Below, one piece after another: positions 1-34,615 of a DNA stretch of 34,615 bases. A program made the position numbers and the translations under genes. Every line of letters starts with the position of its first letter. Position 1 is the stretch's first letter. This DNA comes from a virus: the IMG/VR virus record IMGVR_UViG_3300031418_000062; one strand, given 5' to 3'. The notes below the pieces were generated by a model that was given only the letters and a program-made list of their open reading frames with translations, had not been told where the DNA came from and did not search any database.

Positions 1-127
1 TGATCTGCTGGTGTTGAGTCTACAAGGGAGGCTGTGGCCTCCCGTACCTTGTGCGCCGCGCTTGCGCGGGGCAGTCTGGTTCTATTCTCCAGGCTGAACA
101 ACGGCCGGCCGGCCTGAAGTGGCGCGC
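1..127. repeat. Terminal exact repeat, copy 1 (identical to 34489-34615); circular-assembly overlap
   Basis: The first 127 nt (tgatctgctggtgttgagtc...ggcctgaagtggcgcgc) are repeated base-for-base as the last 127 nt. A length of 127 is a common de Bruijn k-mer size. Confidence 0.95.
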
Positions 128-290
128 TGCGCGCGCATAAGAAAACCTACGCTTAGGGGGGACCCGTCCCCCCTGAGACCCCCCAGGGGTAGAAAGAGAA
201 GGAAACCGGCTGAAACCCGCATGGATGCTAGAGGCGACCGCAAGAATTTGGAGGATGACCGAAAATTTTTTGCACAAGTATGCAAACCTT

Positions 291-351
291 AGTGCTTATT
301 CTTTCGGTGAAACCCATAGGCGGTTTGACTTCGACCGAAAGAATAAGCACT
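291..351. promoter_or_regulatory. 18-bp perfect inverted repeat (agtgcttattctttcggt / accgaaagaataagcact, 25-bp spacer) upstream of the RepL-like gene
   Basis: Arms at 291-308 and 334-351 are exact reverse complements. The direct repeat ATAGGCGGT occurs at 316-324 and 363-371. A second inverted repeat, cggtgat/atcaccg, lies at 368-391. All of these sit within 120 bp of the ATG at 412. Confidence 0.6.
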
Positions 352-411
352 TAACTTTTCGGATAGGCGGTGATATGATCCGCTCATCACCGAAAAAATA
401 AGGTCAAAAAA

Positions 412-1020
412 GTGGCAAACAAAAGAGAACATAACGTCGCTTCTGCGCGCACCGGCCCCAGCCTCAAGAGCCTGACGTACTCGGCGGACCATAATCCGCT
501 CCTCAAGCCGAACAGCATCGAGATCAAGCGGCGCAAGGTACAGACCGGCGTGCGCGAGGATCTGACGGCCCCCGGCGAGGTGCGTGTGTCGGCCATCCAT
601 CAGATCATCGAGAAGGACGACGCCGAGTTCGTAAAGGTGTTTGCCGAAGGCGTCAAGGCTATGTTTGGCTTGAGCCGGACGGCCTACCGGGTGTTCCAGC
701 TGGTCCTGGCCAAGTACCAGGACGAGCCGATGGTTGGCGGCTATGCCGATTCGGTCTACCTGGCGTGGTTCGATGGTGGCCTGTCTGGCGTTGACGTCGG
801 TATGACCGACCGGACCTTTCAAACTGGACTGCGCGAGCTGCTGGGCAAGGGATTCCTGGCGCCGCGGCTGCCGAACGTGTTTTGGGTAAATCCCAGCCTG
901 TTTTTCAAAGGCAACCGGGTGGCCTTCATCACCGAGTACGTACGCAAAACTGGATCCGACGCGAAAAAGCGCGATCGCCTTGAAGCCCAGGGCCAGGGGC
1001 GCCTGGGCATGGGCGAATAG
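412..1020 (+). CDS. Putative winged-helix DNA-binding / RepL-like plasmid replication-maintenance protein
   Basis: 202-aa ORF with good GC3 bias. The central segment FVKVFAEGVKAMFGLSRTAYRVFQLVL...FQTGLRELLGKGFLAP...FWVNPSLFFKGNRV has the layout I associate with RepL-type winged-helix initiators (ending in the 'NP..FFKG' motif). The call is from memory and has not been checked with an HMM. Confidence 0.45.
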   Translation: MANKREHNVASARTGPSLKSLTYSADHNPLLKPNSIEIKRRKVQTGVREDLTAPGEVRVSAIHQIIEKDDAEFVKVFAEGVKAMFGLSRTAYRVFQLVLAKYQDEPMVGGYADSVYLAWFDGGLSGVDVGMTDRTFQTGLRELLGKGFLAPRLPNVFWVNPSLFFKGNRVAFITEYVRKTGSDAKKRDRLEAQGQGRLGMGE

Positions 1021-1028
1021 CCGCCAGC

Positions 1029-1376
1029 ATGCCCGATCAAGTCACTCTCCTGTTTGAGGACCAGGGGCGGCCGCTGCCGCTCCACCGGCTGGCGTTTCCC
1101 CAGCCGGCCTACGACGGCGCGTTCTCGTTCAAGGAAGTGCATGTGTCGCAGCTCAAGCGGACATTGCCGGTCGCGCGCCTGGTGGACGGCGTAGGCCAGG
1201 ACGTGGTGGCCCCGCTGTACGATGCGAAGCTGTTGTGGATGGAAGGCGGGGAAGCGCGCGTGACTGGCATCGAGATAGACGAGCTGTCGCAGCGTCGAAC
1301 GGTGCAGACCTGGAACGTGCGCTTTGCAGGATGGCAGGACGCCGGCGCCGTGGCGCGCCGGGATCCGGCCGGCTAG
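1029..1376 (+). CDS. Hypothetical protein (115 aa)
   Basis: The ORF starts 9 nt after the preceding stop and has high GC3. Its stop overlaps the portal gene stop on the other strand (shared CTAG at 1373-1376). No recognisable motif. Confidence 0.5.
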   Translation: MPDQVTLLFEDQGRPLPLHRLAFPQPAYDGAFSFKEVHVSQLKRTLPVARLVDGVGQDVVAPLYDAKLLWMEGGEARVTGIEIDELSQRRTVQTWNVRFAGWQDAGAVARRDPAG

Positions 1377-2422
1377 GCGGCTTTGCTGGCCGGCTCAATC
1401 GTGTAGGGATTGAAGCGAACCACTTCCTCTCCCAGCCAGTCGTTCAGCTGCAGGAAGCGCGCCTGCAGCGGCTCGATCTCGTTGCGGCCGAACACTTTCG
1501 CCGCCGTGTCAGCGGCGCCAAACCCGCCCGTATTGCTCGGGACGATGCCGAGCAGCTGCGGCGGCACGCGGTGCGCCGCCAGCATGTCGTCCCGGGTCAC
1601 GTTCTTGATGTTGAAAAACTCGTCCTTTGCGGCGACCTCGGACACCGGGATAAGCTGGATCCCATCCTTCTTGCCGTTCGGCGCGTACATGAACAGGTTG
1701 CGGAAATTGCCGGGCCCCTTGCTGTTTTTCAGGGCCTGGCGCATCGCGTCGACGTCCTCCTCCCGCTGCGCCGGATCCGTCATGTACAGGATGAAGCCGG
1801 CGTGGCTCCCGTTCTCGTAATACTTGCGCCGGAACAGCGTGGCGGATTCGTTCAGCCAGGCCGCGTGCAGCGCGCCCAGGTATTCCGGCAAGCCGTACAC
1901 CTCTTGGTTGATGTCCGGATCCCGCAGGTGGAACACGGTCCCTTCCTGGAATTCATGCGTCTGTCGCCATCCGTCGATCTGGATGAAGCGGCGCAGATCA
2001 TTGGCGCGGCGGACATACTTAGCCAGCGGCGGCACCAGCTGCAGCGGGTCGCCCAGACGATTGTTCCGGCGCTCGAGGTAGCCGTTGCCGAACGTCAGAA
2101 AGTCCAGCGCCCAGGCTTCGAAGGCGGCCCGGGAAAGCATCTTGTGCGGGATGAAGGTCGAGGCCAAGACGTTACGCTTGAAGAACAGCGCCGAGGCGTG
2201 GTGAGTCCCGGCGCGGAAGCTCTTGGCCAGGCCGGCCCAGCTGACCGGCGGTTCGTACCACTGGCCATTCGTCCAGGCCTCCGTGTAGTTGAGGATATCG
2301 GCCCGGTCCAGGACCGGTACCGGATCCCCGAAACTGAAAGCCTCGACGCGCGACGGCGCCGAGGCCGGCACCGCGGCCGGCGCTGCAGCTGCCATGCCCT
2401 GGGCGCTGTGTTTTTTCTTCAT
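1373..2422 (-). CDS. Q: Phage portal protein (P2 gpQ family)
   Basis: 349 aa. It sits next to and is co-oriented with the large terminase, as in P2. Sequence blocks such as FRRKYYENGSHAGFILY and NFRNLFMYAPNGKKDGIQLIPV are typical of PBSX/P2-type portals. Confidence 0.93.
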   Translation of the reverse strand: MKKKHSAQGMAAAAPAAVPASAPSRVEAFSFGDPVPVLDRADILNYTEAWTNGQWYEPPVSWAGLAKSFRAGTHHASALFFKRNVLASTFIPHKMLSRAAFEAWALDFLTFGNGYLERRNNRLGDPLQLVPPLAKYVRRANDLRRFIQIDGWRQTHEFQEGTVFHLRDPDINQEVYGLPEYLGALHAAWLNESATLFRRKYYENGSHAGFILYMTDPAQREEDVDAMRQALKNSKGPGNFRNLFMYAPNGKKDGIQLIPVSEVAAKDEFFNIKNVTRDDMLAAHRVPPQLLGIVPSNTGGFGAADTAAKVFGRNEIEPLQARFLQLNDWLGEEVVRFNPYTIEPASKAA

Positions 2423-4200
2423 GAGTAGATCTCCATAATGCTGGTGTTGTTTGAGGTCGCGCCCTCGAGCGGTTCGTTGCCGAGCGCGTGCAGGGTGGCC
2501 CAGGCCAGGTCGGCGTGGCCGGTCTCCTGGCTATAGCCGGCGGTGTAGGTAATTTGGCGGCCGCTCGCCGTGACGGTTTTCTTGATCGACATGAAGGACT
2601 GCGCCATGTCCGTCCAGCCGGCATCGAATTCCAGGCGGCCGCCACGGACTACAGACAAGCCTTTGAGGACCAGGCGGCTTTTCACCTCGGGCGAGTAGTG
2701 CAGCCCTACCACGCTCGGATAGAACGTGCGCACCAGCTGGTAGACGCCCTGACCGATGCCGGTCTGGTCGATCGCCATGTAGGCGACGTTGTAGCGCTCA
2801 GTGATTTGTTTGATGCTGCGCGCCTGCGCTTCGAAGTCCATGCCGCGCCACTGGTGTTTCTCCAGTACGCGGAACTTGCCACCTGGGACCAATGGCGGTG
2901 CGACCACGACACAGCTGGCCTGGTCACCAGACATTGCCGGGTCGTAGCCGACCCAGACGGGGCGATGTCCGAATGGGCGCAGCGCGAACGGTTTCACGTC
3001 CTCCCACTCCACCCAGGAATCGACCATGCAGCGCTGCAGCTCGGCCAGCGGGAAAATGCTCTGGCTGTCGTCCACGAACTGGCACATGAGGAGGTTCGCG
3101 TACTCCTCGGGGCTGTATTCCCGGCGCAGCTCCTCCAGGTCGAACAGGTCGCAGCCGGAATTGGCTGCATCCTCGACCGTCACCATTTGCCGCCACTGGC
3201 CATCGGCGCACGCGCGGCCGGCCGCCAGGGCGGCGTGGCTTACGTCCAGCTGGATATGCTCGGCCTTCGCGCGGCCGCGGTTGGCGTGGTCGCCAGTCCA
3301 GAACGGATAGGCCTCATGCGACATGCTCGACGGCGTGGAAAAGTAGGTCTTGCGCCAATGCTTGTGCATGGCCATGCCCGAGGCGACCTTGTTCAGATTT
3401 TTGAAGCCTGGCACCCAGAAGTACTCGTCAAAGTAAAAATTGCCGTGGTAGCTCTGGGCGGTGCGCGCATTCGTGCTCAAGAAAATCAGCTCGGCCGCGT
3501 TCGGCAGCACGATGGTCTCGCCGGCCAGCTCGACGTCGGCCGCCTCGCGCGCGAACTGGCAGATGTATTGCCGGAACACGTTCGCCTGTGCCTTGCTGGC
3601 CGATAGGAAGATCTGGTTGCGGCCGGTCTCCAGCGCGTCGACGAAGGCCTCCCGCGAGAAATACCAGGTGGCGCCGATCTGGCGACTCTTGAGCAGGTTG
3701 CGCGTGCGCTGCTCGCCATTCCGGTACCAGACCTTCTGGTAGTTGAACAGCGAATCATGGAAGGCCTGCAGGATCCGGGCCTGCTGCTCCTCCGTGACGT
3801 TGTTGCGCTCGGGTTTCTTCTTCGGGCCGGCATTGCGCGCTTCGATGTTCGGGTTGAGGTCCTTTTCCTTCCCGGTCTCGCCGTACCTGCTGATCCGCGC
3901 CGTGCGCTCCAGCTGGCGGGTGAGCAGGTCGATTTCCTTGTAGTCCCCGCCGGTCTTGCCGTCCTTGGCAATGAGCAGGGATAGCCGCGCCTCGATCGAG
4001 GCGTCGACCCGCTCCACCGTGCCGGCCTTTTCCCATTCGTCGCGCTGCTTCCAGGATTCCACCGTGGCCCTGTTCAGGCCGAGCTCACGCGCAATGAACG
4101 ACACCCGCCACCCCTGGAAGTAGAGGAGGCGAGCGGCGCGGCGTGGGTCGATCTCAGTCTCGGCCGCGGTGGGGTCGGGGGTAGTGTTGATTTCAAGCAT
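2419..4200 (-). CDS. P: Terminase large (ATPase) subunit (P2 gpP family)
   Basis: About 593-605 aa, translationally coupled to Q (ATGA overlap at 2419-2422). Contains a KSRQIGATWYFSREAF P-loop-like block and a C-terminal nuclease-like region. The start is uncertain: ATG at 4200 or GTG at 4236. Confidence 0.93.
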   Translation of the reverse strand: MLEINTTPDPTAAETEIDPRRAARLLYFQGWRVSFIARELGLNRATVESWKQRDEWEKAGTVERVDASIEARLSLLIAKDGKTGGDYKEIDLLTRQLERTARISRYGETGKEKDLNPNIEARNAGPKKKPERNNVTEEQQARILQAFHDSLFNYQKVWYRNGEQRTRNLLKSRQIGATWYFSREAFVDALETGRNQIFLSASKAQANVFRQYICQFAREAADVELAGETIVLPNAAELIFLSTNARTAQSYHGNFYFDEYFWVPGFKNLNKVASGMAMHKHWRKTYFSTPSSMSHEAYPFWTGDHANRGRAKAEHIQLDVSHAALAAGRACADGQWRQMVTVEDAANSGCDLFDLEELRREYSPEEYANLLMCQFVDDSQSIFPLAELQRCMVDSWVEWEDVKPFALRPFGHRPVWVGYDPAMSGDQASCVVVAPPLVPGGKFRVLEKHQWRGMDFEAQARSIKQITERYNVAYMAIDQTGIGQGVYQLVRTFYPSVVGLHYSPEVKSRLVLKGLSVVRGGRLEFDAGWTDMAQSFMSIKKTVTASGRQITYTAGYSQETGHADLAWATLHALGNEPLEGATSNNTSIMEIYS

Positions 4201-4246
4201 GACGGCAAGCGTACCCGCCACGCGCGCGCGAAACACGTCCGAGCGA

Positions 4247-4267
4247 TTGTGCCCAGCGTCAACACAT
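4247..4267. promoter_or_regulatory. Late-promoter activator dyad TTGTG-N11-CACA in the P/O divergent intergenic region
   Basis: ttgtgcccagcgtcaacacat. The same TTGTG-N11-CACAA architecture recurs upstream of V and FI, and the first 13 nt are shared with the FI copy (ttgtgcccagcgt). A second dyad, ttgag-N10-ctcaa, lies at 4278-4297. Confidence 0.6.
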
Positions 4268-4350
4268 TCCCCTCCTGTTGAGCTCGCGCGTGCTCAACGG
4301 CAACATGGTCCTCGTCCCCCCCATCATCGGATTAACGGAAAAAACCCAAC

Positions 4351-5193
4351 ATGAGCACCGCAACCCACGCAAAAACGAAATGGTTCCGTGTCGCAGTCGA
4401 AGGCGCGACCACTGACGGCCGCAACATCGCCCGCGACTGGATCACCCAGATGGCGAAGAACTACAGCCCGACCGTGTACGGCGCCCGCGTCAACCTCGAG
4501 CACTACCGCGGCATCGATCCGGCCGGCCTGTTCAAGGCCTACGGCGACGTGCTGGCCCTGGAAGCGCGCGAGGAGTCGGGCGAGTTCGCCGGCAAGCTCG
4601 GCCTGTATGCCCAGATCCAGCCGACCGACGACCTGGTCACGCTGACCAAGAAAGGCCAGAAGATCTACACCTCGATCGAGGTCGACCCGTCGTTCTCGGA
4701 CACCAAGCAGGCCTACATGGTCGGCCTGGCCGTGACTGACAGCCCGGCCAGCCTCGGCACCTCCGTGCTGACCTTCGCCGCCCAGAACCCGGCAGCAAGC
4801 CCGTTCGCACACAAGAAACTGAACGCCAACACCCTGTTCACCGCGGCCGATGAGGCGGTGATCGAGTTCGAAGATCCGGCCGACCCGCCGGCGCCGTCCG
4901 TGTTCAAGCGCGTGGGCGAGCTGCTGGGCCTGTTCCGTAGCAAGGAACGCACCGACGACGCCCGCTTCGCGGACATGGGCCAGGCCGTCGAGGCCCTGGC
5001 AACCCACGGCGCCGAAACCGACAAGACGGTGCAGAAGCTGAGCGCCGACCTGGCCGGCGCGATCGCCGCGGCCGAGAAGGATCGCGCCGCTTTCACGGCC
5101 CTGAAAGAGCAGCTGTCGAAAGACCCGAACCCGGGCCAGCCGGCACGCCCTGCGGCCACTGGCGGCACCGGCGAGCTGGTCACCGACTGCTGA
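4351..5193 (+). CDS. O: Capsid scaffolding protein (P2 gpO family)
   Basis: 280 aa, first gene of the rightward head operon. The N-terminus KWFRVAVEGATTDGRNI...WI..MAKNY is typical of GPO scaffolds. Confidence 0.9.
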   Translation: MSTATHAKTKWFRVAVEGATTDGRNIARDWITQMAKNYSPTVYGARVNLEHYRGIDPAGLFKAYGDVLALEAREESGEFAGKLGLYAQIQPTDDLVTLTKKGQKIYTSIEVDPSFSDTKQAYMVGLAVTDSPASLGTSVLTFAAQNPAASPFAHKKLNANTLFTAADEAVIEFEDPADPPAPSVFKRVGELLGLFRSKERTDDARFADMGQAVEALATHGAETDKTVQKLSADLAGAIAAAEKDRAAFTALKEQLSKDPNPGQPARPAATGGTGELVTDC

Positions 5194-5225
5194 TATCCCC
5201 TTATCCCAACTGGAGTAACAGAAGC

Positions 5226-6248
5226 ATGAAAAACGCAACCCGCCTCAAATACACCGCCTACCTGGTCCAGGTGGCACTGCTGAATGGCGTCGCCAGCGCA
5301 GCGGAGAAATTCACCGTCGAGCCGTCCGTCCAGCAGACCCTGGAAACGAAAATCCAGGAGTCGAGCGACTTCCTGACCAAGATCAACATCGTGCCGGTCA
5401 CCGACATGAAGGGCGAAAAGCTCGGCCTTGGTCTGGGCGGCACCATCGCCGGCCGCACCGACACCAGCAAGGCCGAACGCAATCCGAGCGATCCGACCAG
5501 CCTGGAAGGCAACGGCTACGAATGCACCAAGACCGACTTCGACACCCTGGTCAAGTACGTCAAGCTGGACATGTGGGCGAAGTTCCCGGACTTCCAAACC
5601 CGCATGCGCGACCTGGTCATCAAGGCCCAGGCACGCGACCGGATCCTGATCGGCTTCAACGGCGTGGACCGCGCAGCGACCACCGACCGCGTGAAATTCC
5701 CGATGCTGCAGGACGTGAACAAGGGCTGGCTGCAGAAGTACCGCGAGGAAGCCCCGGCCCGCGTCATGAGCGAAGGCGCGCACGCTGGCCAGGTCCGCGT
5801 CGGCGCCGCTGCCGGCCATGACTACGTCAACCTGGACGCCCTGGTGATCGATGCGGTCAACAACCTGGTGGGCGAGGTGTACCAGGAAGATACCGAGCTG
5901 GTCGTGATCTGCGGCCGCAAGCTGCTGGCTGACAAGTACTTCCCGATCGTGAACAAAGACCAGGCGAACACCGAAGCGCTGGCCGCTGACCTCATCATCA
6001 GCCAAAAGCGCATCGGCAACCTGCCGGCCGTCCGTGTTCCTGGCTTCCCGGCCAATGCCCTGATGGTCACGCGCCTGGACAACCTGTCGATCTACTACCA
6101 GGAAGGCGCCCGCCGCCGTTCGGTGATCGACAACCCGAAGCGCGACCAGGTGGAAAACTACGAATCGAGCAACGAGGATTACGTGGTCGAGGACTACGCC
6201 GGCGGTTGCGTGGTCGAGAACGTCACCCTGGAATGGGCGGCTGCATAA
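5226..6248 (+). CDS. N: Major capsid protein (P2 gpN family)
   Basis: 340 aa, positioned between O and M. Calling it a P2-family major capsid protein rests on length, position and overall sequence character. Confidence 0.92.
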   Translation: MKNATRLKYTAYLVQVALLNGVASAAEKFTVEPSVQQTLETKIQESSDFLTKINIVPVTDMKGEKLGLGLGGTIAGRTDTSKAERNPSDPTSLEGNGYECTKTDFDTLVKYVKLDMWAKFPDFQTRMRDLVIKAQARDRILIGFNGVDRAATTDRVKFPMLQDVNKGWLQKYREEAPARVMSEGAHAGQVRVGAAAGHDYVNLDALVIDAVNNLVGEVYQEDTELVVICGRKLLADKYFPIVNKDQANTEALAADLIISQKRIGNLPAVRVPGFPANALMVTRLDNLSIYYQEGARRRSVIDNPKRDQVENYESSNEDYVVEDYAGGCVVENVTLEWAAA

Positions 6249-6250
6249 GC

Positions 6251-7003
6251 ATGAAAACGCCCGCCCAACGTCATTACGAGCGCGTCAGCGCTGCATCGAC
6301 GGCCGCGGCGGCCGCGCCTGGCGAATCGCTCGCCGGCGCGAGCCGTTACGAGCTGATGCTGGCCAAGCTGGCGACTGACCGGCGCCGCTTGAAGTCGCTG
6401 CAGTCGGTCGAGCGCAAGATCGTGGTCAAGCGCGAAGTGCTGCCCGAGTATGCCGACTATGTGGCCGGTGCGCTCCAGGGCGGGCGCGGCGCCCAGGACG
6501 ACGTCCTGGTCACGATCATGGTCTGGCGCATCGACGTGGGCGACTACGCCGGCGCGCTGGACATCGCCACCTATGCCCTGCAGCACGGCCTGACCCTGCC
6601 GGACCAGTACAGCCGGACCCTGGGCACCGTGATTGCCGAGGAGTTCGCGGAAGCGGCCCTGATCGCTCTCAAGGCTACCCAGGAATTCGACGTCGAGCAG
6701 CTGTTCAAGGTGGACAAGCTGACCCAGGCCCAGGACATGCCCGATGAAGTGCGCGCCAAGCTGTTCAAGGCGATCGGCTATGCACTGGACCGCTACCCGA
6801 CCATGGCCCTGCCGTACCTGCGCCGTGCCGTCGAGTTGCACGACCGCATCGGCGTCAAGAAAGACATCGACCGCCTGGAAAAGGCGGTCAACGCGGCGAT
6901 CGAGGCCGCCGGCAAACTCCCTGCAGGCGACAGCGCCGGCAGCAGTGCGCCCGGCACCGAAGATCCTGCAGCTGCCGCCGAGGCCTCGGCCGGCAGCACG
7001 TAA
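6251..7003 (+). CDS. M: Terminase small/endonuclease subunit (P2 gpM family)
   Basis: The ATG at 6251 follows the N stop by 2 nt. MKTPAQRHYERV...YELMLAKL..D...LK is a typical gpM N-terminus. The longer ORF starting at 6206 overlaps N and is less likely. Confidence 0.88.
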   Translation: MKTPAQRHYERVSAASTAAAAAPGESLAGASRYELMLAKLATDRRRLKSLQSVERKIVVKREVLPEYADYVAGALQGGRGAQDDVLVTIMVWRIDVGDYAGALDIATYALQHGLTLPDQYSRTLGTVIAEEFAEAALIALKATQEFDVEQLFKVDKLTQAQDMPDEVRAKLFKAIGYALDRYPTMALPYLRRAVELHDRIGVKKDIDRLEKAVNAAIEAAGKLPAGDSAGSSAPGTEDPAAAAEASAGST

Positions 7004-7103
7004 CGAGCCCCTCTGGCCTGGCGGCGCCGGCTGACGATCGCAAGACCACCAGGTCGCCGCGATCCGACGCCGGCCCACCGCCAACTATCGAAAGCCCAAC
7101 GAA

Positions 7104-7574
7104 ATGAGTTTCATCGCCACCGCCCCCTCGAGCACGCCGGCACCGGCCGCCGCGATCGTGACCAATGACGGATTCTTCCCCGACATCGATCTCGACCAGC
7201 TGCGCGAACACATGCGCCTGGACGGCACCGTGACCCACGTGCGCCTGCGCGATGCGGCGATCGCCGCGGTGATCTCCGTCAACGGCGAGCTCGAGGCCTG
7301 GAAGGTCGCGCAGCTGGCCGCCGGCGTCACCAGTCTGGCCGACACCCTGCCCAAGATCGGCGGGGTGAGTGCCAAGGTGACGCAGTACCAGACGGCCGTC
7401 TACCGCACGGCCAAGGCGGATCTGACCGAGCGCTACCGCGACTACGACACCACCAAGAGCGGCGAAGCGAAGGCCGAGCAGCTGGTCGACACCGTGGGCG
7501 ATGACCGCCGCGCCGCGCGCTGGGCGATCTCGGACCTGCAGGGCAAGCGGCGCTCCACCATCGAGCTGATCTGA
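7104..7574 (+). CDS. L: Head completion/stabilisation protein (P2 gpL family)
   Basis: 156 aa, positioned after M. FFPDIDLDQLREHMRLDGTVT is a characteristic gpL motif. Confidence 0.85.
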   Translation: MSFIATAPSSTPAPAAAIVTNDGFFPDIDLDQLREHMRLDGTVTHVRLRDAAIAAVISVNGELEAWKVAQLAAGVTSLADTLPKIGGVSAKVTQYQTAVYRTAKADLTERYRDYDTTKSGEAKAEQLVDTVGDDRRAARWAISDLQGKRRSTIELI

Positions 7575-7780
7575 TGAAGGTGATGACGCAACAAGGCGAC
7601 ACCGTGGACGAGCTGTGCTGGCGACAGTACGGCCGCACCGCCGGCATGGTCGAAAAAGTGCTCGAGCTGAACCCGGGCCTGGCCGACTACGGGCCGATCC
7701 TGCCCAACGGGCTGGAAGTAGAAATGCCGGCGCCGCCGGCGACAACCCCAACCACCCCGCTGCTGCAGCTGTGGGATTGA
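7574..7780 (+). CDS. X: Tail protein X (LysM-like, P2 gpX family)
   Basis: 68 aa, ATGA-coupled to L. GDTVDELCWRQYGRT...LELNPGL matches gpX-like proteins. Confidence 0.85.
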   Translation: MKVMTQQGDTVDELCWRQYGRTAGMVEKVLELNPGLADYGPILPNGLEVEMPAPPATTPTTPLLQLWD

Positions 7781-7797
7781 AACTCAAGGAACCCATC

Positions 7798-8142
7798 ATG
7801 GCAGAACCTAGCACTACCACAACGGCCATCGTGTCGGCGGGGATCGGCTTTGCAAGCCTGGCACCGGGGATCGACGGTAACGCGCTCATCGGCGCTTTCG
7901 CCGGCGCGGCCCTCCTGGTCGTCAGCTCCAAAGACCTGACCCTCGGCAAGCGATTCGCTTACCTGGTCATTTCGGTGATCGTCGGCTACATGGCCGCGCC
8001 CGAAGTGGTCCGGATGACCCCTATCCACTCCACCGGCGTGGCCGGCTTCTTCGGCGCGGCCCTGGCGATCGCCGTCACGCTGCAGCTGCTCGACCGGCTC
8101 AAAACGCTGGATCTGTTCGCATTCTTCAGCCGGGGGAAGTGA
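7798..8142 (+). CDS. Putative holin (multi-pass membrane protein)
   Basis: 114 aa from the internal ATG at 7798, with about 3 hydrophobic helices. It is the first gene of the lysis cassette upstream of the endolysin. Confidence 0.6.
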   Translation: MAEPSTTTTAIVSAGIGFASLAPGIDGNALIGAFAGAALLVVSSKDLTLGKRFAYLVISVIVGYMAAPEVVRMTPIHSTGVAGFFGAALAIAVTLQLLDRLKTLDLFAFFSRGK

Positions 8143-8144
8143 CC

Positions 8145-10716: not shown

Positions 10717-10717
10717 C

Positions 10718-11470: not shown

Positions 11471-11574
11471 GATAAGGGTCCAGGTTGCGTAGGGATCGGC
11501 GCGGAAGCGTCCCCCCGGACTCGCGCTCTGTAGGTATTTTCGACGCCAGCCGGCGCCGGTAGAACCTCGAGCTG

Positions 11575-16898: not shown

Positions 16899-16899
16899 C

Positions 16900-26171: not shown

Positions 26172-26778
26172 TCTGCAGCCGGTCCCGATCGGCGGCCGGC
26201 ACAACCTCCGCGACATAGCCCGGGCTATCGCACGACATACGCAGCGATCCATCCACCATGTGCTGGATCCTGCGGAAATAAGCATGGGTATCATCGAAGC
26301 GCACCAGGTAAAGCCCATCTGCAGACTGCTGAGCGCAATTCACCAGGACCACGTGCCCTTCGGGTAGCGTGTCCGCCATAGCATCCCCCACCACCCGCAC
26401 GGCGATAACGTCACCAGCTTCCAGTCGCTCCTGGTCAAGCCATTGCCGCGGCACGTACCAGGATTGTTCCTCGAACGCCTTCGGCCAGTCCATCGCATCC
26501 AATAATGGCACCTCGACCATGTGGGCCGGGATCGGGGCCGGCGCCGCGCCGCCGGCTTCCTTTGTGCCCCTTCCCAGAATCAGCCAGTCCAGGCTGATAT
26601 TCCGATCGAGCGCAAAAATGACGCATTCGTCATAGGGGATTGAGCCCCGATTCTTTAGCACGCTGATAAAGCCGCGCGACCCACCAAGCACCTCGGATAA
26701 CTCTTTGTCTAATTGGATGCCAAGCACAGTTTTCATTCTGTCGATTATGTCTGTTACGGATGGCTTATTTTGTTCCAT
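26131..26778 (-). CDS. cI: CI-like immunity repressor: N-terminal HTH plus a degenerate S24 (LexA/CI/UmuD-type) C-terminal domain
   Basis: The N-terminus LGIQLDKELSEVLGGSRGFISVLKNRGSIP is HTH-like. The C-terminus aligns with the S24 fold but reads GDAM instead of G(D/N/M)SM, and AYFRRI instead of FTVKKL. The 3' end overlaps the recombinase gene by 41 nt. Confidence 0.85.
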   Translation of the reverse strand: MEQNKPSVTDIIDRMKTVLGIQLDKELSEVLGGSRGFISVLKNRGSIPYDECVIFALDRNISLDWLILGRGTKEAGGAAPAPIPAHMVEVPLLDAMDWPKAFEEQSWYVPRQWLDQERLEAGDVIAVRVVGDAMADTLPEGHVVLVNCAQQSADGLYLVRFDDTHAYFRRIQHMVDGSLRMSCDSPGYVAEVVPAADRDRLQIIGYCHSVVRAVR

Positions 26779-27846: not shown

Positions 27847-30624
27847 ATGGCTAATATTGACGAAGTAAAACGGATCGTAAACCCTCGGCTGCATGACCTG
27901 GCCTCCAGGCTCGGCATCAAGCAGGGAAAGGGTGGCGACGATGCGCTGTATCACTCGCCGCACCACCCCGACAAGAATCCCTCCCTGTCGATCTACATCG
28001 ACCATCCCAAGCACGGCACCGGCTGGAAGGACCACAGCGGCGACGCCGGCGGCTCCTGCATCGACATGGTGATGTTCACCCAGGGCTGCAGCGCCTCCGA
28101 TGCCCTGAAATACCTGCACCAGGAATACGCGATCCCCTTCGACACTCCGGATAAGCCGGCCCAGGAAAACAAGAGCATGGTCGAGTACATTGCCGACCGC
28201 TGCATCGCCGCCCGCGAGAAGGTGCGGGACTACCTGCAGGGCCGCGCGATCGGCGCCGGCGCGATCGATGCCGCGCTGCGCGCCAAGACCCTGGGATTCA
28301 ACGAATGGACCAGCCCGAAGAAACAACCAGGTGAGGTGGGCTATGGCGGCCCGGCTGCGGCCTTCATCGTGCGCTCGCCCGACACCAGCCAAGTGGTGGC
28401 CGTCGACATGCGCTTCCTGGATCCGGCCCAGAATGGCGACGTCAAGACGCAGGCCCAGGGCGAGAAGGACGGCTACTACTGGACCGCCGACCCCCGCAAG
28501 CTCGAGCGCGCCCAGCGCGTGTACGTGGTCGAAAGCCCGATCAACGCCCTGTCGATCGACACCTGCAGCATCCCCAAGACTGCAGCGATCGCCCTCCGCG
28601 GCCTCAGCAACGCGTCGACCATCGACCTGGCCTTCCTGCAGGGCAAACAGGTGGTGATCTGCATGGACAACGACGAGCCCTTCCCGGACGGCCACCAGCG
28701 CGCCGGCCAGCGTCCCGGCCCAGAGGCCGCCTGGATCCTGTACGAGCGCCTGACCGCCATCAACATCAGCGCAGTCCTGGTCGACCAGGAGGAGTGGGAC
28801 AAGGTTGAAGGCGACGAGAACGGCGGCAAGCCGATCAACGACGTGAACGACTACCTGCAGGCGCGCGGCGCGCAGAAGCTGGCCAAGGCCCTGGACACCT
28901 ACGAGACCTGGCTGATCGCCGGCATGGCCGGCAACGTCTCGCGCAAGGGCCGGGCGCGCGTCTACCTGCCAGCACACGATTACGCCCAATACTGGAAATT
29001 CCGGCCGCACCTGGACTTCACCAAGTACATCGCCAGGATGGACGAAAACAAGGAAACCGGCGACGAGACCCCGATCTACCACGACCTGTGCGGTTTCCGG
29101 GTCGCATCCCTGAGCCGGGTATCGGTCGCCAGCTCGACCGCCACCATGACCGGCGATCGGGACCACTCCCCTACCGTGTACTTTTCCGTGACGGTCCAAG
29201 TTCCCCGCCACGGCCCCGAGCTGGTCCGCAAGGTCCTGATGGACGACCAGCTGCACAACACGAACACCTGGACGAAGTTCGGCCCGATCTGGAAGCCGGC
29301 CGAATTCTCGCGCATGGTGAGCATCCTCGAGCGCACCGCGGATCTCGGCGCACGCAAGGCCGCCAACTTCGTGGGCCTGGCCTGGCTCGACGGCCGCCTG
29401 GCTGTCAACGAGGGGCCGGACTGCTATTTCACCGAAGCCGAGAAGCAATGCACGTATCACAACCTGACGTTCCCTTCCGGGCCGACCGCGAACGCGCGCA
29501 GGGTCATCAAAGCGTATCAGGCCACCTACACCAGCAACGCCGGCGCGATCCCCCTGGTCTGGGCACTCGGCGGCCACCTCAAGGCCTTCCTGGGATTCTG
29601 GCCACACATCACGATGCAGGCCGACAAGGGCGCCGGCAAGTCCACCCTGGTGAAGCGCCTCGAGCGCTCCCTGGCCTTCACCATGTTCTCGGGCCAGAGC
29701 CTGCAGACGGAATTCCGCCTGATGACCAGCATCAGCTACACCAGCCATCCGGTTGGCTGGGAGGAGCTGAGCGCCCGCCGCACCGACGTGATCGACAAGG
29801 CCGTGGCGATCCTGCAGGAGTCGTATCAGTACACCACTACCAAGCGCGGCTCCGAAATGACCGAGTTCCTGCTGTGCGCGCCGGTGATGCTGGCCGGCGA
29901 GGACGTGCCCGTTAAGAGCCTCACCGGCAAGGTGGTCCGGACGGATCTGACCAACAAGGCCAACGGCTTCATGGCCGACGACCTGCCCCACTTCCCAGTG
30001 CGCCAGTGGCTGGAATTCCTGACCAAGCTCGACAAGGCCACCGTGCTGGAGAAGTACGCCGGGCTGCGCGAGTACTGCCTGAAAAACAGCCGCGCCGGCG
30101 GCGACGACAGCGGCGCCAGGCGCATGGCCGGCAACTACGCGGCCGTGCTGCTGGCCTGGGGACTCCTGGCCGAGTTCGCCGGCATGGACTATTCCGAAGG
30201 TGCATTCGGCAAGGACCTCCTGGCCGAGATGAACGCCCATATTTCGGAGACCAGCAGCGACCGCTCGCCGTGGGTCTGGATCATGGAAACGGCGCTGTCC
30301 GAGATCGACGCCAGCAACTTCAAGCACCCGTACAAGTTCGAAGTGGTGGACGGCAAGGATTGCCTGCTGGTGCGGCCGCAGCACATCATGGACCACCTGT
30401 CGAGCTCCTCGAGCCTGCGCGAGAAGTGGAATTCTCTGCCGGTCAAGACCGCTGCAGTGTTCAAGCGTCAGATGATGTCGGCCGGGATCCTGTTGCTGGA
30501 CGAAGCCGGGAAGCCCAAGGAACTGGAGCGGACCATTTTGATGCGCCGCGTTGGCCACCTCTCCGCGATCCCGCTCGAGGCCTTGAACAACTTCGGCCTG
30601 TCGGTCGGCTGGCGGAACGAGTAG
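27847..30624 (+). CDS. Bifunctional primase-helicase-like replication protein (degenerate zinc-finger region, toprim domain, P-loop NTPase)
   Basis: 925 aa. Toprim motifs VYVVESPINALS and VVICMDNDEP, and Walker A ADKGAGKST. The overall layout resembles P4 alpha / DUF927-type phage-plasmid primase-helicases. Confidence 0.85.
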   Translation: MANIDEVKRIVNPRLHDLASRLGIKQGKGGDDALYHSPHHPDKNPSLSIYIDHPKHGTGWKDHSGDAGGSCIDMVMFTQGCSASDALKYLHQEYAIPFDTPDKPAQENKSMVEYIADRCIAAREKVRDYLQGRAIGAGAIDAALRAKTLGFNEWTSPKKQPGEVGYGGPAAAFIVRSPDTSQVVAVDMRFLDPAQNGDVKTQAQGEKDGYYWTADPRKLERAQRVYVVESPINALSIDTCSIPKTAAIALRGLSNASTIDLAFLQGKQVVICMDNDEPFPDGHQRAGQRPGPEAAWILYERLTAINISAVLVDQEEWDKVEGDENGGKPINDVNDYLQARGAQKLAKALDTYETWLIAGMAGNVSRKGRARVYLPAHDYAQYWKFRPHLDFTKYIARMDENKETGDETPIYHDLCGFRVASLSRVSVASSTATMTGDRDHSPTVYFSVTVQVPRHGPELVRKVLMDDQLHNTNTWTKFGPIWKPAEFSRMVSILERTADLGARKAANFVGLAWLDGRLAVNEGPDCYFTEAEKQCTYHNLTFPSGPTANARRVIKAYQATYTSNAGAIPLVWALGGHLKAFLGFWPHITMQADKGAGKSTLVKRLERSLAFTMFSGQSLQTEFRLMTSISYTSHPVGWEELSARRTDVIDKAVAILQESYQYTTTKRGSEMTEFLLCAPVMLAGEDVPVKSLTGKVVRTDLTNKANGFMADDLPHFPVRQWLEFLTKLDKATVLEKYAGLREYCLKNSRAGGDDSGARRMAGNYAAVLLAWGLLAEFAGMDYSEGAFGKDLLAEMNAHISETSSDRSPWVWIMETALSEIDASNFKHPYKFEVVDGKDCLLVRPQHIMDHLSSSSSLREKWNSLPVKTAAVFKRQMMSAGILLLDEAGKPKELERTILMRRVGHLSAIPLEALNNFGLSVGWRNE

Positions 30625-30910: not shown

Positions 30911-31216
30911 TTACCTGTTCGCCTCGCGTTCCTCGGCCGCGATGAAGCGCGAGACCGCCAGCGCGAACGCTGCCGCACGGCTGAGGCCAAGCGCGGCGGC
31001 CTTGTTGTCCAGTGCCGCCAGGATATGCGCGTCGATCGTCAAGCTGATCGGCTTCTTTCTGCCGCCTTTCGGAATCAACGCCGGCGCCGGCGTCGACGTC
31101 GCACTCGGCTTAGCGTCCGGCGCGGCGCCGATGAGGGCCGCGACCTGATCTTCGGTTACGCCTGGCTTGAGCCCTGCCGGATTGCTACCTGGGCGGGGCA
31201 AGATTTTCGATACCAT
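30911..31216 (-). CDS. parG: Ribbon-helix-helix (ParG/CopG-like) partition adaptor / centromere-binding protein
   Basis: 101 aa immediately downstream of ParA. It has a disordered Pro/Ala-rich N-terminus and then KPISLTIDAHILAALDNKAAALGLSRAAAFALAVSRFI, an RHH pattern. Confidence 0.65.
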   Translation of the reverse strand: MVSKILPRPGSNPAGLKPGVTEDQVAALIGAAPDAKPSATSTPAPALIPKGGRKKPISLTIDAHILAALDNKAAALGLSRAAAFALAVSRFIAAEEREANR

Positions 31217-31256: not shown

Positions 31257-31916
31257 CTACTTTGACCTGTCCGCGAATGCGCGAATGTCCTCGAGCAGGT
31301 TGTACATTTCGTTGCGGGCGTCCGGTGGTGCGCCCTTGAATTCGCTGATATGACGGCCGGCCGCGCTGGCATGGGAGAACGCCTTGCGATCGCCCAGCCT
31401 GCATTTGCTGATCTCAAAACCAAACTGAGACACATATTCAATCGACGCCTCGTTGTCGGCCTCTTGACCAGCTGGATCCGCCTTGTTCAGGAAAGCCAAC
31501 ACCTTGAAGTCTTTCACCTGCTGCATTTCCCGGGCCAGATTCACTGTATTTTCGAATGCCCACACATCGAACGAGCGTGGAGCAAACGGAAACACCATCA
31601 CGTCACACAGCGACAACGCGGCCCGCATCGCGCCTGAATCCTTTGCCCCCACGTCGATAACCACGTCATCGAAGTTCCCCGCCTGCAGGAGCACCTGGGC
31701 ACGCATGGACGGGCCATCCGTCAGCGGCACCGATGGGATCCCAGGCAAATCCGCCAGGATCCGGGCGGTAAGGGCCAGGTGCATGGAGGTCTGTTCATCG
31801 TCCCCATCGACCGCCCAAACCCTACGCCCGGCCAGGGACAAGCCGGTCACCAGTTGCACCGAGGTGGTGGACTTGCCAACGCCGCCCTTTTTATTCGCTA
31901 CTGCATAGATTGTCAT
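31257..31916 (-). CDS. parA: ParA-family partition ATPase (small, type Ib-like, no N-terminal HTH)
   Basis: The deviant Walker A AVANKKGGVGKSTT is at the extreme N-terminus. VWAVDGDDEQTS is also present. 219 aa. Confidence 0.9.
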   Translation of the reverse strand: MTIYAVANKKGGVGKSTTSVQLVTGLSLAGRRVWAVDGDDEQTSMHLALTARILADLPGIPSVPLTDGPSMRAQVLLQAGNFDDVVIDVGAKDSGAMRAALSLCDVMVFPFAPRSFDVWAFENTVNLAREMQQVKDFKVLAFLNKADPAGQEADNEASIEYVSQFGFEISKCRLGDRKAFSHASAAGRHISEFKGAPPDARNEMYNLLEDIRAFADRSK

Positions 31917-31951: not shown

Positions 31952-31975
31952 TTCTATATTCAGTTGATATCAACT
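31952..31975. promoter_or_regulatory. TTCTATATTC + 14-bp palindrome AGTTGATATCAACT upstream of parA (operator/centromere candidate)
   Basis: A perfect palindrome at 31962-31975, located 46 nt upstream of the parA start. Confidence 0.55.
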
Positions 31976-32751: not shown

Positions 32752-32880
32752 CGACACTAGCGCCCGCCTCGAGCCATGCCCAGCACCTGGTCGACCCCGC
32801 GGCCGCCTATGAAACCGGGCCAAGACGGCGCCGGCGGCCGCCGGTTTCCACTCGCCAGCAGCAGGGCACAGGCAGCACAG

Positions 32881-33256
32881 AAAACCCGGGGATTTATGCC
32901 CTCTTGTGACGTAAGTCATTGATTCTTGAGCAACTACCATCCCCGAACTACCCCCGAAAATCCCCGGATATGCTGAGTTTTTCCACGGCGGGCCTCATTT
33001 CTTCCATGGTTGTGGCCGGCGCCGTCCTCCTACTTCTTTCTTTTTTTTAGCTATGAAAAGAGAGAGGAATAGAGGGAAGGAAAGAATTTCGCGCATCCCC
33101 GACCCGCACCCGCATTTCCCCGACTTTTCCCCGCTGCCTAAATTTTCATCCCCGGGTTCCCCGACCTTTCCACGGCCTTTTCGTGGATGGTGGGGGATGG
33201 AAATTTCTTAGGAATCAGGTACTTACGCCAACATCCACGGCATCCCCCGATCCCCG
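32881..33256. repeat. Iteron-like cluster of (A/T)TCCCCG(A/G) motifs (at least 10 copies) flanking a polypyrimidine/polypurine dyad
   Basis: TCCCCG occurs at 32940, 32961, 33096, 33117, 33128, 33149, 33158 and 33251. CCCCCG occurs at 32951 and 33244, with an inverted copy at 32881-32895. TCCACGG occurs at about 32982, 33168 and 33234. The Py tract is 33025-33048 and the Pu tract 33055-33086. Confidence 0.7.
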
Positions 33257-33640
33257 GCGTGCGCTGCCTGGGGGGTGTTCGGGTTCCTTTTTCTGAGCCA
33301 TAGGGTTTTGCCCCTCGCTAGAACGCATCAAAACCGCCTACAGGCGCATCAAACCGCATCAGGTGACGCGGCCAGCAAATCGGCTGAAGGCCGCACCAGG
33401 CCTGTTTCCGGCCGGCTCCTGGGGCTGCATTAGAACCAGGCCCCCAAGCGAAGCCCGGAGGCGGGGAGGGGCCTCCGCAGCAGCGGGGCAGGCGGCCTTG
33501 CCTTGGGGATCCCCCTCCAGGAGCCCCAGGGGGCCGCCCAGGGCGTCGCAGGCGCTGCGCACGGTGCGCGGACGCTCTGCGGCACCTCCAACCGTGCGCG
33601 CGTCATAGAGGCCCGTTTGATGCGTCTGGCCAGGTGCATT

Positions 33641-34054
33641 GGCGGCGATCGCACGCCTCGAGCTCGAGCAGCTGGCCGCCGACCAGGTTGCGCACCAGGT
33701 GCGGCCGCGGCGCCGGCGGGATCCTGCAGCTGCAGCAGCTGGTCGACCAGGTGGATCCGACCCGGGCTGGCCAGCGCCGGCGGCGATCGCGCGCCTCGAG
33801 CTCGAGCAGCTGGACGCCGACCAGGTTGCGCACCAGGTGCGGCCGTGGCGCCGGCGGGATCCTGCAGCTGCAGCAGCTGGTCGACCAGGTGGATCCGGCC
33901 CGGGCTGGCCAGCGCCGGCGGCGATCGCGCGCCTCGAGCTCGAGCAGCTGGACGCCGACCAGGTTGCGCACCAGGTGCGGCCGCGGCGCCGGCGGGATCC
34001 TGCAGCTGCAGCAGCTGGTCGACCAGGTGGATCCAGCCCGGGCTGGCCAGCGCG
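33641..34054. repeat. Three tandem copies of a 138-bp unit built from perfect palindromes
   Basis: Units start at 33641, 33779 and 33917 and differ by only a few substitutions. Each contains GCGATCGC, CTCGAGCTCGAG, CAGCTG, CTGCAGCTGCAG, CTGGTCGACCAG, GGATCC, CCCGGG and TGGCCA. Confidence 0.95.
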
Positions 34055-34060
34055 CCGAGC

Positions 34061-34088
34061 GTGTTTGTGTTTGTGTTGTTGTTTGTGT
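34061..34088. repeat. GT-rich microsatellite (gtgtttgtgtttgtgttgttgtttgtgt)
   Basis: Low-complexity TG/TTG tract directly abutting the tandem array. Confidence 0.85.
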
Positions 34089-34129
34089 CGTCCAGGTGCG
34101 TGGACTGAACAGCAGGCTTGCATGGGTTA

Positions 34130-34168
34130 CGCATCCTGGTGCGTAGTACTGCGCATCCTGGTGCATAG
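34130..34168. repeat. Two 17-bp direct repeats CGCATCCTGGTGC(G/A)TAG spaced 22 bp start to start (iteron-like)
   Basis: 34130-34146 and 34152-34168. A related cgcatcctcggcgc lies at 34447-34460. Confidence 0.75.
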
Positions 34169-34488
34169 GTGTAGTAAAAGCCAACGGGACACCTGCCCGC
34201 GCTCCCGCTTGGGTTGCGCACCGATTTCCTACGGAAACCGGCACGCCCGGTTACGCGGGTGAACCCGTAAAATCAAAACCCGAAAACCCCGAAATGCAAC
34301 TAACCCATGACTCGGCCAGCGACACAGGCAGGCCACCAGGTTGGAGGCCGCCCTACAGGCCGTTGATCTGACGGCAGGGGCGATTTGAGTCCGAGGACCG
34401 ATGCCGAAGGCGAGGGAGCGAGGATGGCCCGTTAGGGCCACCCCTGCGCATCCTCGGCGCTCCTCCAGAGCGTCCGGTTGTTAGCGGG

Positions 34489-34615
34489 TGATCTGCTGGT
34501 GTTGAGTCTACAAGGGAGGCTGTGGCCTCCCGTACCTTGTGCGCCGCGCTTGCGCGGGGCAGTCTGGTTCTATTCTCCAGGCTGAACAACGGCCGGCCGG
34601 CCTGAAGTGGCGCGC
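34489..34615. repeat. Terminal exact repeat, copy 2 (identical to 1-127)
   Basis: Same comparison as for copy 1. Confidence 0.95.

Follow-up and report, generated by a model that had tools for sequence, protein, structure and literature searches.

We consider it probable that the window analysed here, the 34,615-nt IMG/VR virus record IMGVR_UViG_3300031418_000062 examined at its full span, holds the whole genome of a temperate myophage of the P2 type (Peduoviridae) whose host belongs to the Oxalobacteraceae and which would lysogenise as a low-copy circular plasmid, without integration, like its relative KS14. The phage-plasmid reading is well supported, because gene content, stand-alone contigs of related elements in isolate assemblies and orthology to KS14 all point to it. 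A full phage module and plasmid replication and partition genes are found on one replicon, which is the gene content of a phage-plasmid in the sense of Pfeifer et al. (2021); that the prophage is also kept outside the chromosome has indirect support, from the stand-alone contigs of relatives and from contig-size ceilings. An initial annotation of this DNA had taken partition, resolution and replication without integration as the signature of a plasmid prophage, and this reading is retained, with the reservation that ParA alone is not diagnostic, as phage phiE12-2 illustrates. It had also known of no recognised phage-plasmid lineage among P2-like myophages, a claim of novelty that has to be given up, as KS14 was shown to be one in 2010 (PMC3091744) and was listed as one in 2021 (PMC7969092). 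The P2-type phage-plasmid has been known for over a decade, and the window is a new relative in another host family; what is new here is modest, namely the Oxalobacteraceae host, a RepL-like replicon in place of RepB, and conserved cis elements.

KS14 and its relatives were found by tblastn of the window's ParA against cultured phages. The accessory genes of KS14 and the window follow the same order, from D through small open reading frames (ORFs), a serine recombinase, a divergent CI/S24 repressor, ogr, a primase, an RHH protein and ParA to an initiator and the portal gene. Neither has a tyrosine integrase, and orthologs of the KS14 recombinase (65% identical to gp6), CI repressor (35%, gp5), primase (65%, gp2), RHH domain (61% to gp41 over the C-terminal 44 aa, with the beta-strand sequence PISLTID in both) and ParA (48%, gp40) stand in KS14 order; the capsid proteins are 60% identical. 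The Gin/Cin-like recombinase of KS14, which lacks a tyrosine integrase, has been argued not to be an integrase (Lynch et al. 2010, PMC3091744). In the same work, KS14 DNA was recovered from lysogens by plasmid miniprep and gave the EcoRI pattern of a circular genome, leading to the conclusion that the prophage is a plasmid (PMC3091744). The survey of Pfeifer et al. (2021) places KS14 among the phage-plasmids, in the 'VP882 community' (PMC7969092).

Genome-length contigs with the window's architecture stand alone in the isolate assemblies of Duganella sp. SG902 (34,319 bp) and Pseudoduganella sp. FT55W (34,740 bp). Two separate assemblies of Massilia dura hold contigs of 38,992 and 38,894 bp that are cut within different genes: one begins inside the primase gene, which is intact mid-contig in the other, and that other contig ends about 3.6 kb beyond S, in the tail-gene region. 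The two contigs are thus circular permutations: cut points that differ while the span is nearly equal point to a circular molecule and not to an att-bounded prophage. Among ParA homologs of at least 54% identity, the longest contig of every cluster is at most 38 kb, with lengths of 33-36 kb recurring, and only at 53% identity or less do contigs reach hundreds of kb to Mb, for example in Burkholderia thailandensis (2.96 Mb).

The window closes on itself, as first noted, through an exact 127-bp direct overlap of its ends, which leaves a unit genome of 34,488 bp; identical contig ends are the usual sign of a circle opened by the assembler. Its G+C content is 65%, it has no tRNA genes, and an Rfam search of the entire window returned zero matches. 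A recombinase protein identical to that of the window occurs on only three contigs in public assemblies, all of 20-50 kb, one of which is an independent MEGAHIT contig of 34,209 bp that keeps the gene order and is not flanked by host DNA.

No integrase came to light. Phage_integrase, large-serine-recombinase, Cox/Apl, gpA and gpB families have no match among the called accessory ORFs in Pfam, PHROG or NCBIfam. The sole stretch long enough for a hidden integrase is a gene-poor region of about 2.5 kb that begins at 32340 and runs over the junction as far as 420, and its six-frame ORF segments of at least 45 aa have no Pfam match at E <= 1. The tyrosine integrase of phi52237 and gp23 of phiE12-2, searched by tblastn against the whole window, gave noise only at E <= 10. 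The initial annotation had reported neither a tyrosine or large serine integrase nor a Cox/Apl-like excisionase, and had proposed profile searches as a check; these searches bear it out on both counts, and they confirm a CbiA-type ParA and an RHH_1 protein as well.

The P2-type virion, packaging and lysis genes occupy 1373-24360 of the window and follow the P2 order that had been described for them, with Pfam confirming it gene by gene. The block runs Q and P (minus strand), O, N, M, L, X, two holins, a muramidase, Rz/Rz1, R and S, followed by a methyltransferase (minus strand) and then V, W, J, I, H, a DUF5658 ORF, FI, FII, E, T, U and D. The head and packaging matches (PF05125, 494 bits; PF05929, 336 bits; PF03237/PF17289/PF06056; PF05944; PF04860) are in P2 order, so that the capsid, GPO scaffold, gpP/gpM terminase and gpQ portal of Peduoviridae are found with the divergent Q-P and O-N-M-L arrangement. 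The tail set from R and S through D is likewise present by Pfam matches per gene, together with Ogr/Delta; GpU and GPD come from the precomputed annotation of the 34,209-bp MEGAHIT contig. Coordinates of all features are collected in Table 1.

Table 1. Features of the 34,615-nt window (aa, amino acids; TRF, Tandem Repeats Finder).
Feature	Position	Strand	Basis and remarks
Terminal direct overlap	1..127		identical to 34489-34615; mark of circular assembly
Candidate cis site, noncoding, possibly cos	40..80	+	CCTTGTGCGCCGCG...GCGGGGCAGTC; conserved among phage elements only
Candidate plasmid origin/operator upstream of repL	190..411	+	motif AACCCGCATGGATGCTAG at 214-231; 18-bp inverted repeat 291-308 / 334-351
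orf202 (repL), putative distant RepL-family plasmid replication initiator	412..1020	+	202 aa; homologs and context
orf115, variable insert between repL and portal gene	1029..1376	+	no family match
P2-type packaging, head, lysis and tail block	1373..24360		Pfam match per gene; 39-76% amino-acid identity to KS14 throughout
Portal Q	1373-2422	-	Pfam
Terminase P	2419-4236	-	Pfam
Orphan type II methyltransferase (N6/N4)	10718-11620	-	PADLOC MTase_II 1e-93
D	23347-24360		end of the block; Pfam order
Candidate recombination-site cluster	24688..24813	+	gix-like palindrome and two extra left half-sites; upstream of recombinase operon
orf78	24839-25075	+	upstream of recombinase gene, co-oriented
orf157	25054-25527	+	upstream of recombinase gene, co-oriented; phrog_27964 4e-23
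Small serine recombinase, Gin/Hin-like clade	25527..26171	+	PF00239 154 bits and HTH_7
CI-type repressor with S24 (LexA-like) autopeptidase domain	26131..26778	-	PF07022 1.6e-13, PF00717 2e-10
Ogr/Delta zinc-finger late activator	27157-27414	+	PF04606 2.2e-19; heads divergent early operon
orf117	27411-27764	+	phrog_3461 8e-14 (for the Ogr/Delta-orf117 pair)
Toprim primase	27847..30624	+	925 aa; Walker-A-like motif; Toprim_3 3.9e-17; phrog_5629 1653 bits
RHH protein, ParG/omega-like putative ParA partner	30911..31216	-	101 aa; RHH_1 20.7 bits (cut-off 20.5); phrog_18157 1.9e-20
Small Walker-type ParA, type Ib-like partition ATPase	31257..31916	-	219 aa; CbiA, AAA_31 and MipZ above cut-offs; phrog_164
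GTTGATATCAAC box, putative operator	31963..31974		overlaps -35 hexamer of promoter-like site upstream of parA
GTTGATATCAAC sister boxes	32679-32690 (exact); 32740-32751 and 31228-31239 (2 mismatches each)		motif scan
orf119	31984-32343	-	upstream of parA; 38-40% identical to Massilia and Duganella ORFs at the same place
orf68	32422-32628	-	upstream of parA, same strand
Conserved noncoding iteron block	32859..33240		at least 11 copies of (A/T)TCCnCG(G/A), two arrays around an AT/polypurine palindrome
138-bp tandem repeat	33641..34053		TRF; 3 copies, 97% matches
Plasmid-like noncoding block	34204..34478	+	78% identical over 277 nt to region upstream of repB of pHB2a/pHB2b

The partition locus was described correctly from the outset, and Pfam and PHROG confirm both the type-Ib-like ParA and its RHH partner. 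ParA carries the deviant Walker A motif KGGVGKST at residues 10-17, its Pfam and NCBIfam matches begin at residues 1-5, and it has no N-terminal HTH or other DNA-binding domain, as in type Ib; it matches NF041546 (ParA_partition) at 1.4e-33, under the cut-off of that model, and is 52% identical to phiE12-2 gp12. The gene of the RHH protein, the kind of partner expected of type Ib, lies 40 bp downstream of parA, and we propose that its product binds both centromere and operator. The palindromic boxes reported at this locus are real in the statistical sense: with up to 2 mismatches allowed, GTTGATATCAAC has five matches where 0.30 are expected, no shuffle out of 100 reaches five, and four of the five fall in the par locus. 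Both exact boxes, one preceding parA and the other orf68-orf119, overlap the -35 of a promoter-like site on the minus strand (TTGATA-17-TACAAT), and the box upstream of parA recurs in KS14 (30384-30395, exact) and in Duganella (1 mismatch). We infer that the RHH protein binds the GTTGATATCAAC boxes and may thereby autoregulate the par operon. The region of orf119 and orf68 has a weak match to phrog_23407.

Immediately upstream of the par region lies a noncoding iteron block of about 380 bp, in which some of the copies are spaced 21 bp apart. It aligns with Massilia, Duganella and KS14 at a mean column identity of 70% in the four-way alignment, with clusters of 11 iterons in the window, 11 in Duganella, 6 in KS14 and 4 in Massilia, and no such cluster is present in phiE12-2 or phi52237. 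The central base of the iteron is C in the window, T in KS14 and A in Massilia and Duganella. An origin for RepL was considered for this block and rejected, as KS14 shares the block and yet has another initiator with iterons of its own (28586-28639). Those KS14 repeats are three 20-22-bp spaced, GAACCGGGGTTTTG-like copies just upstream of the RepB-like gene, probably RepB iterons, and are distinct from the common ATCCnCG block. Its position beside the par region makes the block a likely partition centromere, so that the par operon has two centromere candidates nearby, the GTTGATATCAAC promoter boxes and the iterons; alternatively, the block could belong to cos or serve the primase as an origin of lytic replication.

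The gene presumed to initiate plasmid-mode replication, orf202, has no direct Pfam, PHROG or NCBIfam match at normal thresholds, and a profile search of the PDB with its protein gave noise only. Its homologs are more informative. When 25 aligned homologs were scanned singly, 24 matched RepL at E <= 0.1 (best 1e-8); many of the 475 homologs carry a precomputed PF05732 annotation, and one bears the name RepL-domain protein in UniRef. Most of them lie on contigs of 1-8 kb and none on a contig above 39 kb, in a collection of species-representative genomes none of the contigs that hold its 10 loci exceeds 34.3 kb, and the IMG/VR relatives found through RepL reach a maximum of 34-37 kb. Homologs at 52-64% identity are on contigs without any match to the window's phage proteins, some of which encode ParA or a resolvase. 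Judged by these comparisons, orf202 is a plasmid replicon gene, predicted to be a distant relative of the RepL family; the small-contig context of the homologs is a stronger argument for this than the profile score.

The replicon of KS14 is of another kind. The best BLASTP match between orf202 and the RepB-like gp37 of KS14 has an E-value of 0.015 over 43 aa and was judged non-homologous, tblastn of gp37 against the window gave noise only, and a RepB-type initiator beside the portal gene, a trait of KS14, is not found in the window. Unrelated initiators, RepB-type in KS14 and RepL-type here, thus fill one slot, which is flanked by the par region and the portal gene, and this suggests an exchange of the plasmid replicon. 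The motif AACCCGCATGGATGCTAG upstream of repL is common to two non-phage 4-kb RepL contigs and the phage elements. By comparison, k-mers of the noncoding block at the left end, possibly cos, occur in the Duganella, Massilia and Pseudoduganella elements and not in the small RepL plasmids. The P2 cos 19-mer has no match in the window at up to 3 mismatches, and a comparison of noncoding sequence with phi52237, phiE12-2 and KS14 revealed no common block, so cos was not located. At the other end of the window, the last ~105 nt of the plasmid-like block (34375-34477) are 94% identical to pHB2a/pHB2b; GU722200 and GU722201 are recorded as 'hyperthermophilic bacterial plasmid 2a/2b', of 4.8-5.4 kb. 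The block was not found in KS14 and has no Rfam match, and folding of its 105-nt part is not significant, with z-scores of -1.5 and -1.8.

The serine recombinase, of 214 aa, consists of PF00239 and short HTH domains; the length of more than 400 aa and the large C-terminal recombinase/zinc-ribbon domain of a large serine integrase are not seen. It matches phrog_125 'DNA invertase' (5e-71), Mu Gin (7e-49) and gamma-delta resolvase (1e-27) in the PDB, and its XisF and Ccr model matches cover the catalytic domain only and are far under the cut-offs. It is 87% identical to its Massilia dura ortholog. By these scores it is nearer to Gin-type invertases than to Tn3-type resolvases, so that of the resolvase-class recombinase behind a res-like site initially described, the gene and the site cluster stand and the class is corrected towards Gin. 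The cluster lies in the gap that separates gene D from the recombinase operon. Its palindrome, TGTCTAACAAACC-AC-GGTTTTTTAGACA at 24688-24715, has 13-bp inverted half-sites around a 2-bp core with AAACC-NN-GGTTT, the layout of gix/hix sites, whose half-sites are of 12-13 bp; two additional left half-sites follow at 24759-24771 and 24786-24798, and a terminator-like hairpin sits between (24727-24749). The 13-mer, at up to 2 mismatches, gives one cluster per genome, within 126 bp, and AAACCNNGGTTT occurs once in the genome. In Massilia dura (contig L006, 12-39 and 110-122) an identical palindrome immediately precedes the recombinase gene, and a related one is found at the equivalent place in Pseudoduganella (contig L022, 17739-17750); the site sequence was not found in KS14.

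The pair of inverted sites flanking an invertible segment that a Gin/Hin invertase uses is not present. An invertible tail-fibre switch was ruled out, with a single cluster about 8 kb from gene H; one site per genome fits dimer resolution or integration instead. One palindrome with two extra half-sites in 126 bp, upstream of the operon and kept in two relatives, may correspond to a res system, and we propose that the cluster is a res-type multimer-resolution site and operator of the recombinase operon, and that the role of the recombinase is plasmid multimer resolution. Resolution is preferred over integration because of the evidence for an episome, the accessory-like half-sites, the KS14 precedent and a Duganella contig that lacks a recombinase gene beside CI and is still separate. 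Upstream of the recombinase gene, orf157 is 46% identical to the KS14 gp7 region and 52% identical to the C-terminus of Pseudoduganella orf190. In Duganella sp. SG902 (contig JABMJK010000027.1, 1-1800), other small ORFs, among them a BrnA antitoxin-domain gene, are found in the slot beside CI, which suggests a toxin-antitoxin module there.

The CI repressor gene converges on the recombinase gene. In the divergent early operon, the primase shows ~74-76% nucleotide identity to phi52237, RsoM1USA and Menos, integrative P2-like phages of Burkholderia and Ralstonia, and phi52237 encodes it beside a tyrosine integrase. Since integrative P2-like phages also carry this primase, it is most simply seen as a putative phage (lytic) replication protein. 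Its domains are Toprim_3 and Toprim_2 (Pfam) with only a weak DnaG zinc-ribbon match, and there is no PDB sequence match; a helicase part may be present, judging from the Walker-A-like GAGKST motif alone. The gene initially called a P4-alpha-like primase-helicase is there, but the comparison with P4 was rejected, as BLASTP against P4 alpha gives E = 0.69 and P4-alpha membership does not follow. In KS14, Massilia, Duganella and Pseudoduganella, the early genes begin with one for an Arc-like protein of 50-66 aa (RVPIPLS...IIY), located between CI and ogr; no homolog is found in the window by tblastn at E <= 1, and the 380-bp low-GC spacer at that place (26779-27156) has no credible small ORF.

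Megablast matches to cultured phages cover at most 17% of the structural query and at most 25% of the accessory query, at ~75% nucleotide identity, and KS14 is absent among the best nucleotide matches listed for either query. High nucleotide identity over most of the genome, as expected within KS14's genus Kisquattuordecimvirus, is not what we find; since 25% of a query is the most that any phage record covers, the element is best placed as a distinct uncultured branch outside that genus. The host is likely a member of the Oxalobacteraceae, because a relative with a 97% identical RepL was binned in an Oxalobacteraceae metagenome-assembled genome and the isolate relatives are Massilia, Duganella and Pseudoduganella.

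Several observations weigh against a plasmid prophage. The evidence for the window's own element is sequence only, and the circle could be replicative or cos-joined phage DNA. The initial annotation called orf202 a RepL-like winged-helix protein, and the likeness to RepL is borne out by its homologs and not by its own score, since it reaches 13.2 bits against PF05732 (E = 0.062) where the curated cut-off is 20.3; the AlphaFold2 (AF2) model of the protein, with a mean pLDDT of 50.6, is unusable. ParA is non-diagnostic, given that phiE12-2 has a 52% identical ParA and an RHH protein and yet integrates, its attP having been mapped (PMC2920897). In the Duganella relative, CI has no recombinase gene beside it, so that such elements may be able to do without one. 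For the iteron block and the boxes, roles are proposed from position and conservation alone, and what is known of KS14 comes from a miniprep and a digest, not from a stability test.

The most serious rival is that the phage integrates, with the small serine recombinase as its integrase, the palindrome at 24688-24715 as an attP that recombines with an attB on the chromosome, and ParA/RHH as a regulator or exclusion module, its presumed role in integrative prophages of the phiE12 type. The recombinase does occupy the P2 int position, between D and the repressor, with the one site cluster of the genome beside it, which would fit attP too, and ParA homologs at 51-53% identity are on contigs of 0.49-2.96 Mb, and phiE12-2 integrates. 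phiRSM, a filamentous phage of Ralstonia, owes its integration to a small resolvase-like recombinase. Even so, no relative was found joined to host DNA: the four isolate assemblies give stand-alone contigs, those of Massilia dura with different cuts, and the close ParA and all RepL homologs stay on contigs of at most ~38-39 kb. KS14, with an orthologous recombinase, yielded plasmid DNA from its lysogens, the extra half-sites resemble accessory res subsites, the window has a dedicated plasmid initiator gene, and the Duganella element without a recombinase gene beside CI is still a separate contig. We therefore regard integration as unlikely.

We give slightly less credence still to a circle that is only the replicative or packaged genome of a lytic or pseudolysogenic P2-like phage, whose plasmid-like genes would be remnants or morons. 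Closure alone cannot separate a plasmid from replicating phage DNA, the window lacks the Arc-like gene that all four relatives keep between CI and ogr, which hints at an altered switch, and the authors who described the KS14 relative FLC5 could not tell whether it lysogenises. However, the CI/S24 repressor, ParA/RHH with its operator boxes, RepL and the recombinase are full-length across diverged relatives, and the element is found in assemblies of cultured isolates, two of them of Massilia dura, which argues for stable carriage. The possibility that a small plasmid carrying RepL, ParA and the recombinase was joined to a P2-like phage by misassembly, which the initial annotation had named as a case that would undo its reading, gains something from the other relatives of the RepL family and of the plasmid-like block on small plasmids. 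It is effectively refuted by the same junctions and order in the MEGAHIT assembly, the four isolate assemblies, the 34-37 kb IMG/VR contigs and KS14, and we give it hardly any weight.

Under the phage-plasmid reading, lysogeny would be maintained by the CI/S24 repressor, which would hold the early operon from Ogr to the primase off until SOS-triggered self-cleavage of CI opens the lytic cycle, in which the Toprim primase would serve phage replication. In the plasmid state, the RepL-family initiator would act on the conserved region just upstream of its own gene. The small ParA and its RHH partner would segregate the copies, with the RHH protein probably binding the GTTGATATCAAC boxes over two par promoters, which would give autoregulation, and with the iteron block adjoining par as the likely centromere. 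The Gin-like recombinase would resolve dimers to monomers at its single gix-like cluster and probably autoregulates its own operon.

A broader proposal, which we put forward tentatively and would not yet back against its alternatives, is that KS14-like P2 phage-plasmids are a widespread modular lineage of Burkholderiales. In it, the portal-side replicon, of RepB type in Burkholderia and of RepL type in Oxalobacteraceae, would be swapped with small cryptic plasmids, a Gin-family invertase would have been re-purposed as a single-site multimer resolvase, and an undescribed 8-bp iteron array, with a central base of C, T or A by lineage, would be the partition centromere. In a search of PLSDB with the capsid protein, 74 plasmid-deposited records were found to encode P2-family capsids; among them are circular records of 22-45 kb in Enterobacter, Salmonella and E. 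coli, and 11 records in Zymomonas. These may be further P2-type phage-plasmids outside Burkholderiales, or phage genomes mislabelled as plasmids.

Some features of the window lie aside from the question of its maintenance. PADLOC, run on the ORFs without an assigned function, found the orphan methyltransferase alone as a candidate defence gene. The tail-fibre gene H is followed by the small DUF5658 protein (16590-16898), at a slot where KS14 and phiE12-2 carry a tail-fibre assembly gene, of which no homolog was seen in the window. The tape measure gene (19440-22925) has 1161 codons, its KS14 counterpart (8574-11102) being much shorter, and contains an 11-copy 57-bp tandem repeat (22039-22668) with the Ala/Pro-rich unit PAQLQPVVAAAKSPAAAAA and a local GC of up to 76%, and a second repeat of 216 bp in ~1.9 copies (21372-21771). 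Between repL and the portal gene, orf115 has no Pfam, PHROG, NCBIfam or PADLOC match and is lacking in the relative with the 97% identical RepL (L010), where the two genes are ~50 bp apart. A portal-side accessory hotspot of P2-like phages has been described (PMC13586616), and the orf115 interval corresponds to it.

The 138-bp tandem repeat has no Pfam match in any frame. Its unit is full of 6-bp palindromes (CTCGAGCTCGAG, CAGCTGCAGCAGCTG, GGATCC, GTCGAC), and partial copies at 24363-24443, 30631-30712, 10662-10702 and 19914-19947 include ones directly past the stop codons of D, the primase and S, so that it looks like a REP-like intergenic repeat. The MEGAHIT contig is ~279 bp short of the unit genome, and the copy number of this repeat may differ or have been collapsed there.

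KS14 has so far been the one experimentally supported P2-type plasmid prophage, and the kind is now extended to a second bacterial family, with Massilia dura, Duganella sp. SG902 and Pseudoduganella sp. FT55W as culturable carriers in which maintenance in the plasmid state can be tested. Surveys of P2-like prophages that require an integrase will miss the present branch, and ParA alone is no predictor of lifestyle. As hypotheses, the swapped replicon and the conserved cis elements can be put to the test; they leave the understanding of phage-plasmids unchanged.

Compared with known systems, the window is closest to KS14 (Peduoviridae, Kisquattuordecimvirus) and to FLC5, FLC10 and CEP1, with which it shares P2-type virion and lysis genes and the lack of a tyrosine integrase; the GTTGATATCAAC box upstream of parA and the iteron block are also common to it and KS14. 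The two differ in host (Burkholderia for KS14), in an amino-acid identity of only 35-76%, in the initiator beside the portal gene, RepB-like in KS14 and RepL-like here, and in the Arc-like early gene, which KS14 has and the window lacks. P2 and 186 resemble the window in the order and families of Q-P, O-N-M-L-X, lysis, R-S, V-W-J-I-H and FI-FII-E-T-U-D and in Ogr, whereas the window lacks Int, Cox/Apl, B and A (PF05840), has ogr at the head of the early operon and a CI/S24 repressor, and carries genes for plasmid replication, partition and recombination. phiE12-2, to which integrated prophage islands are related, has the P2-type virion, a ParA with its RHH partner and the same position of the orphan methyltransferase, but it integrates, at an attP that has been defined, encodes a nickase of the P2 A type in place of the primase, and is without RepL, the serine recombinase and the iteron block. 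For the recombinase, Tn3/gamma-delta res and Gin/Hin systems share the catalytic domain with a C-terminal HTH, and the site lies upstream of the recombinase operon as in res; the subsite spacing differs from that of Tn3/gamma-delta res, and no second full palindrome is evident in the window. P1 has a type Ia ParAB and the tyrosine recombinase Cre, and N15 is linear, with a protelomerase. With P1, N15 and SSU5 the window has the logic in common, a repressor-controlled prophage on a plasmid replicon with active partition and, in P1, dimer resolution as well, while the virion modules and the maintenance proteins are unrelated.

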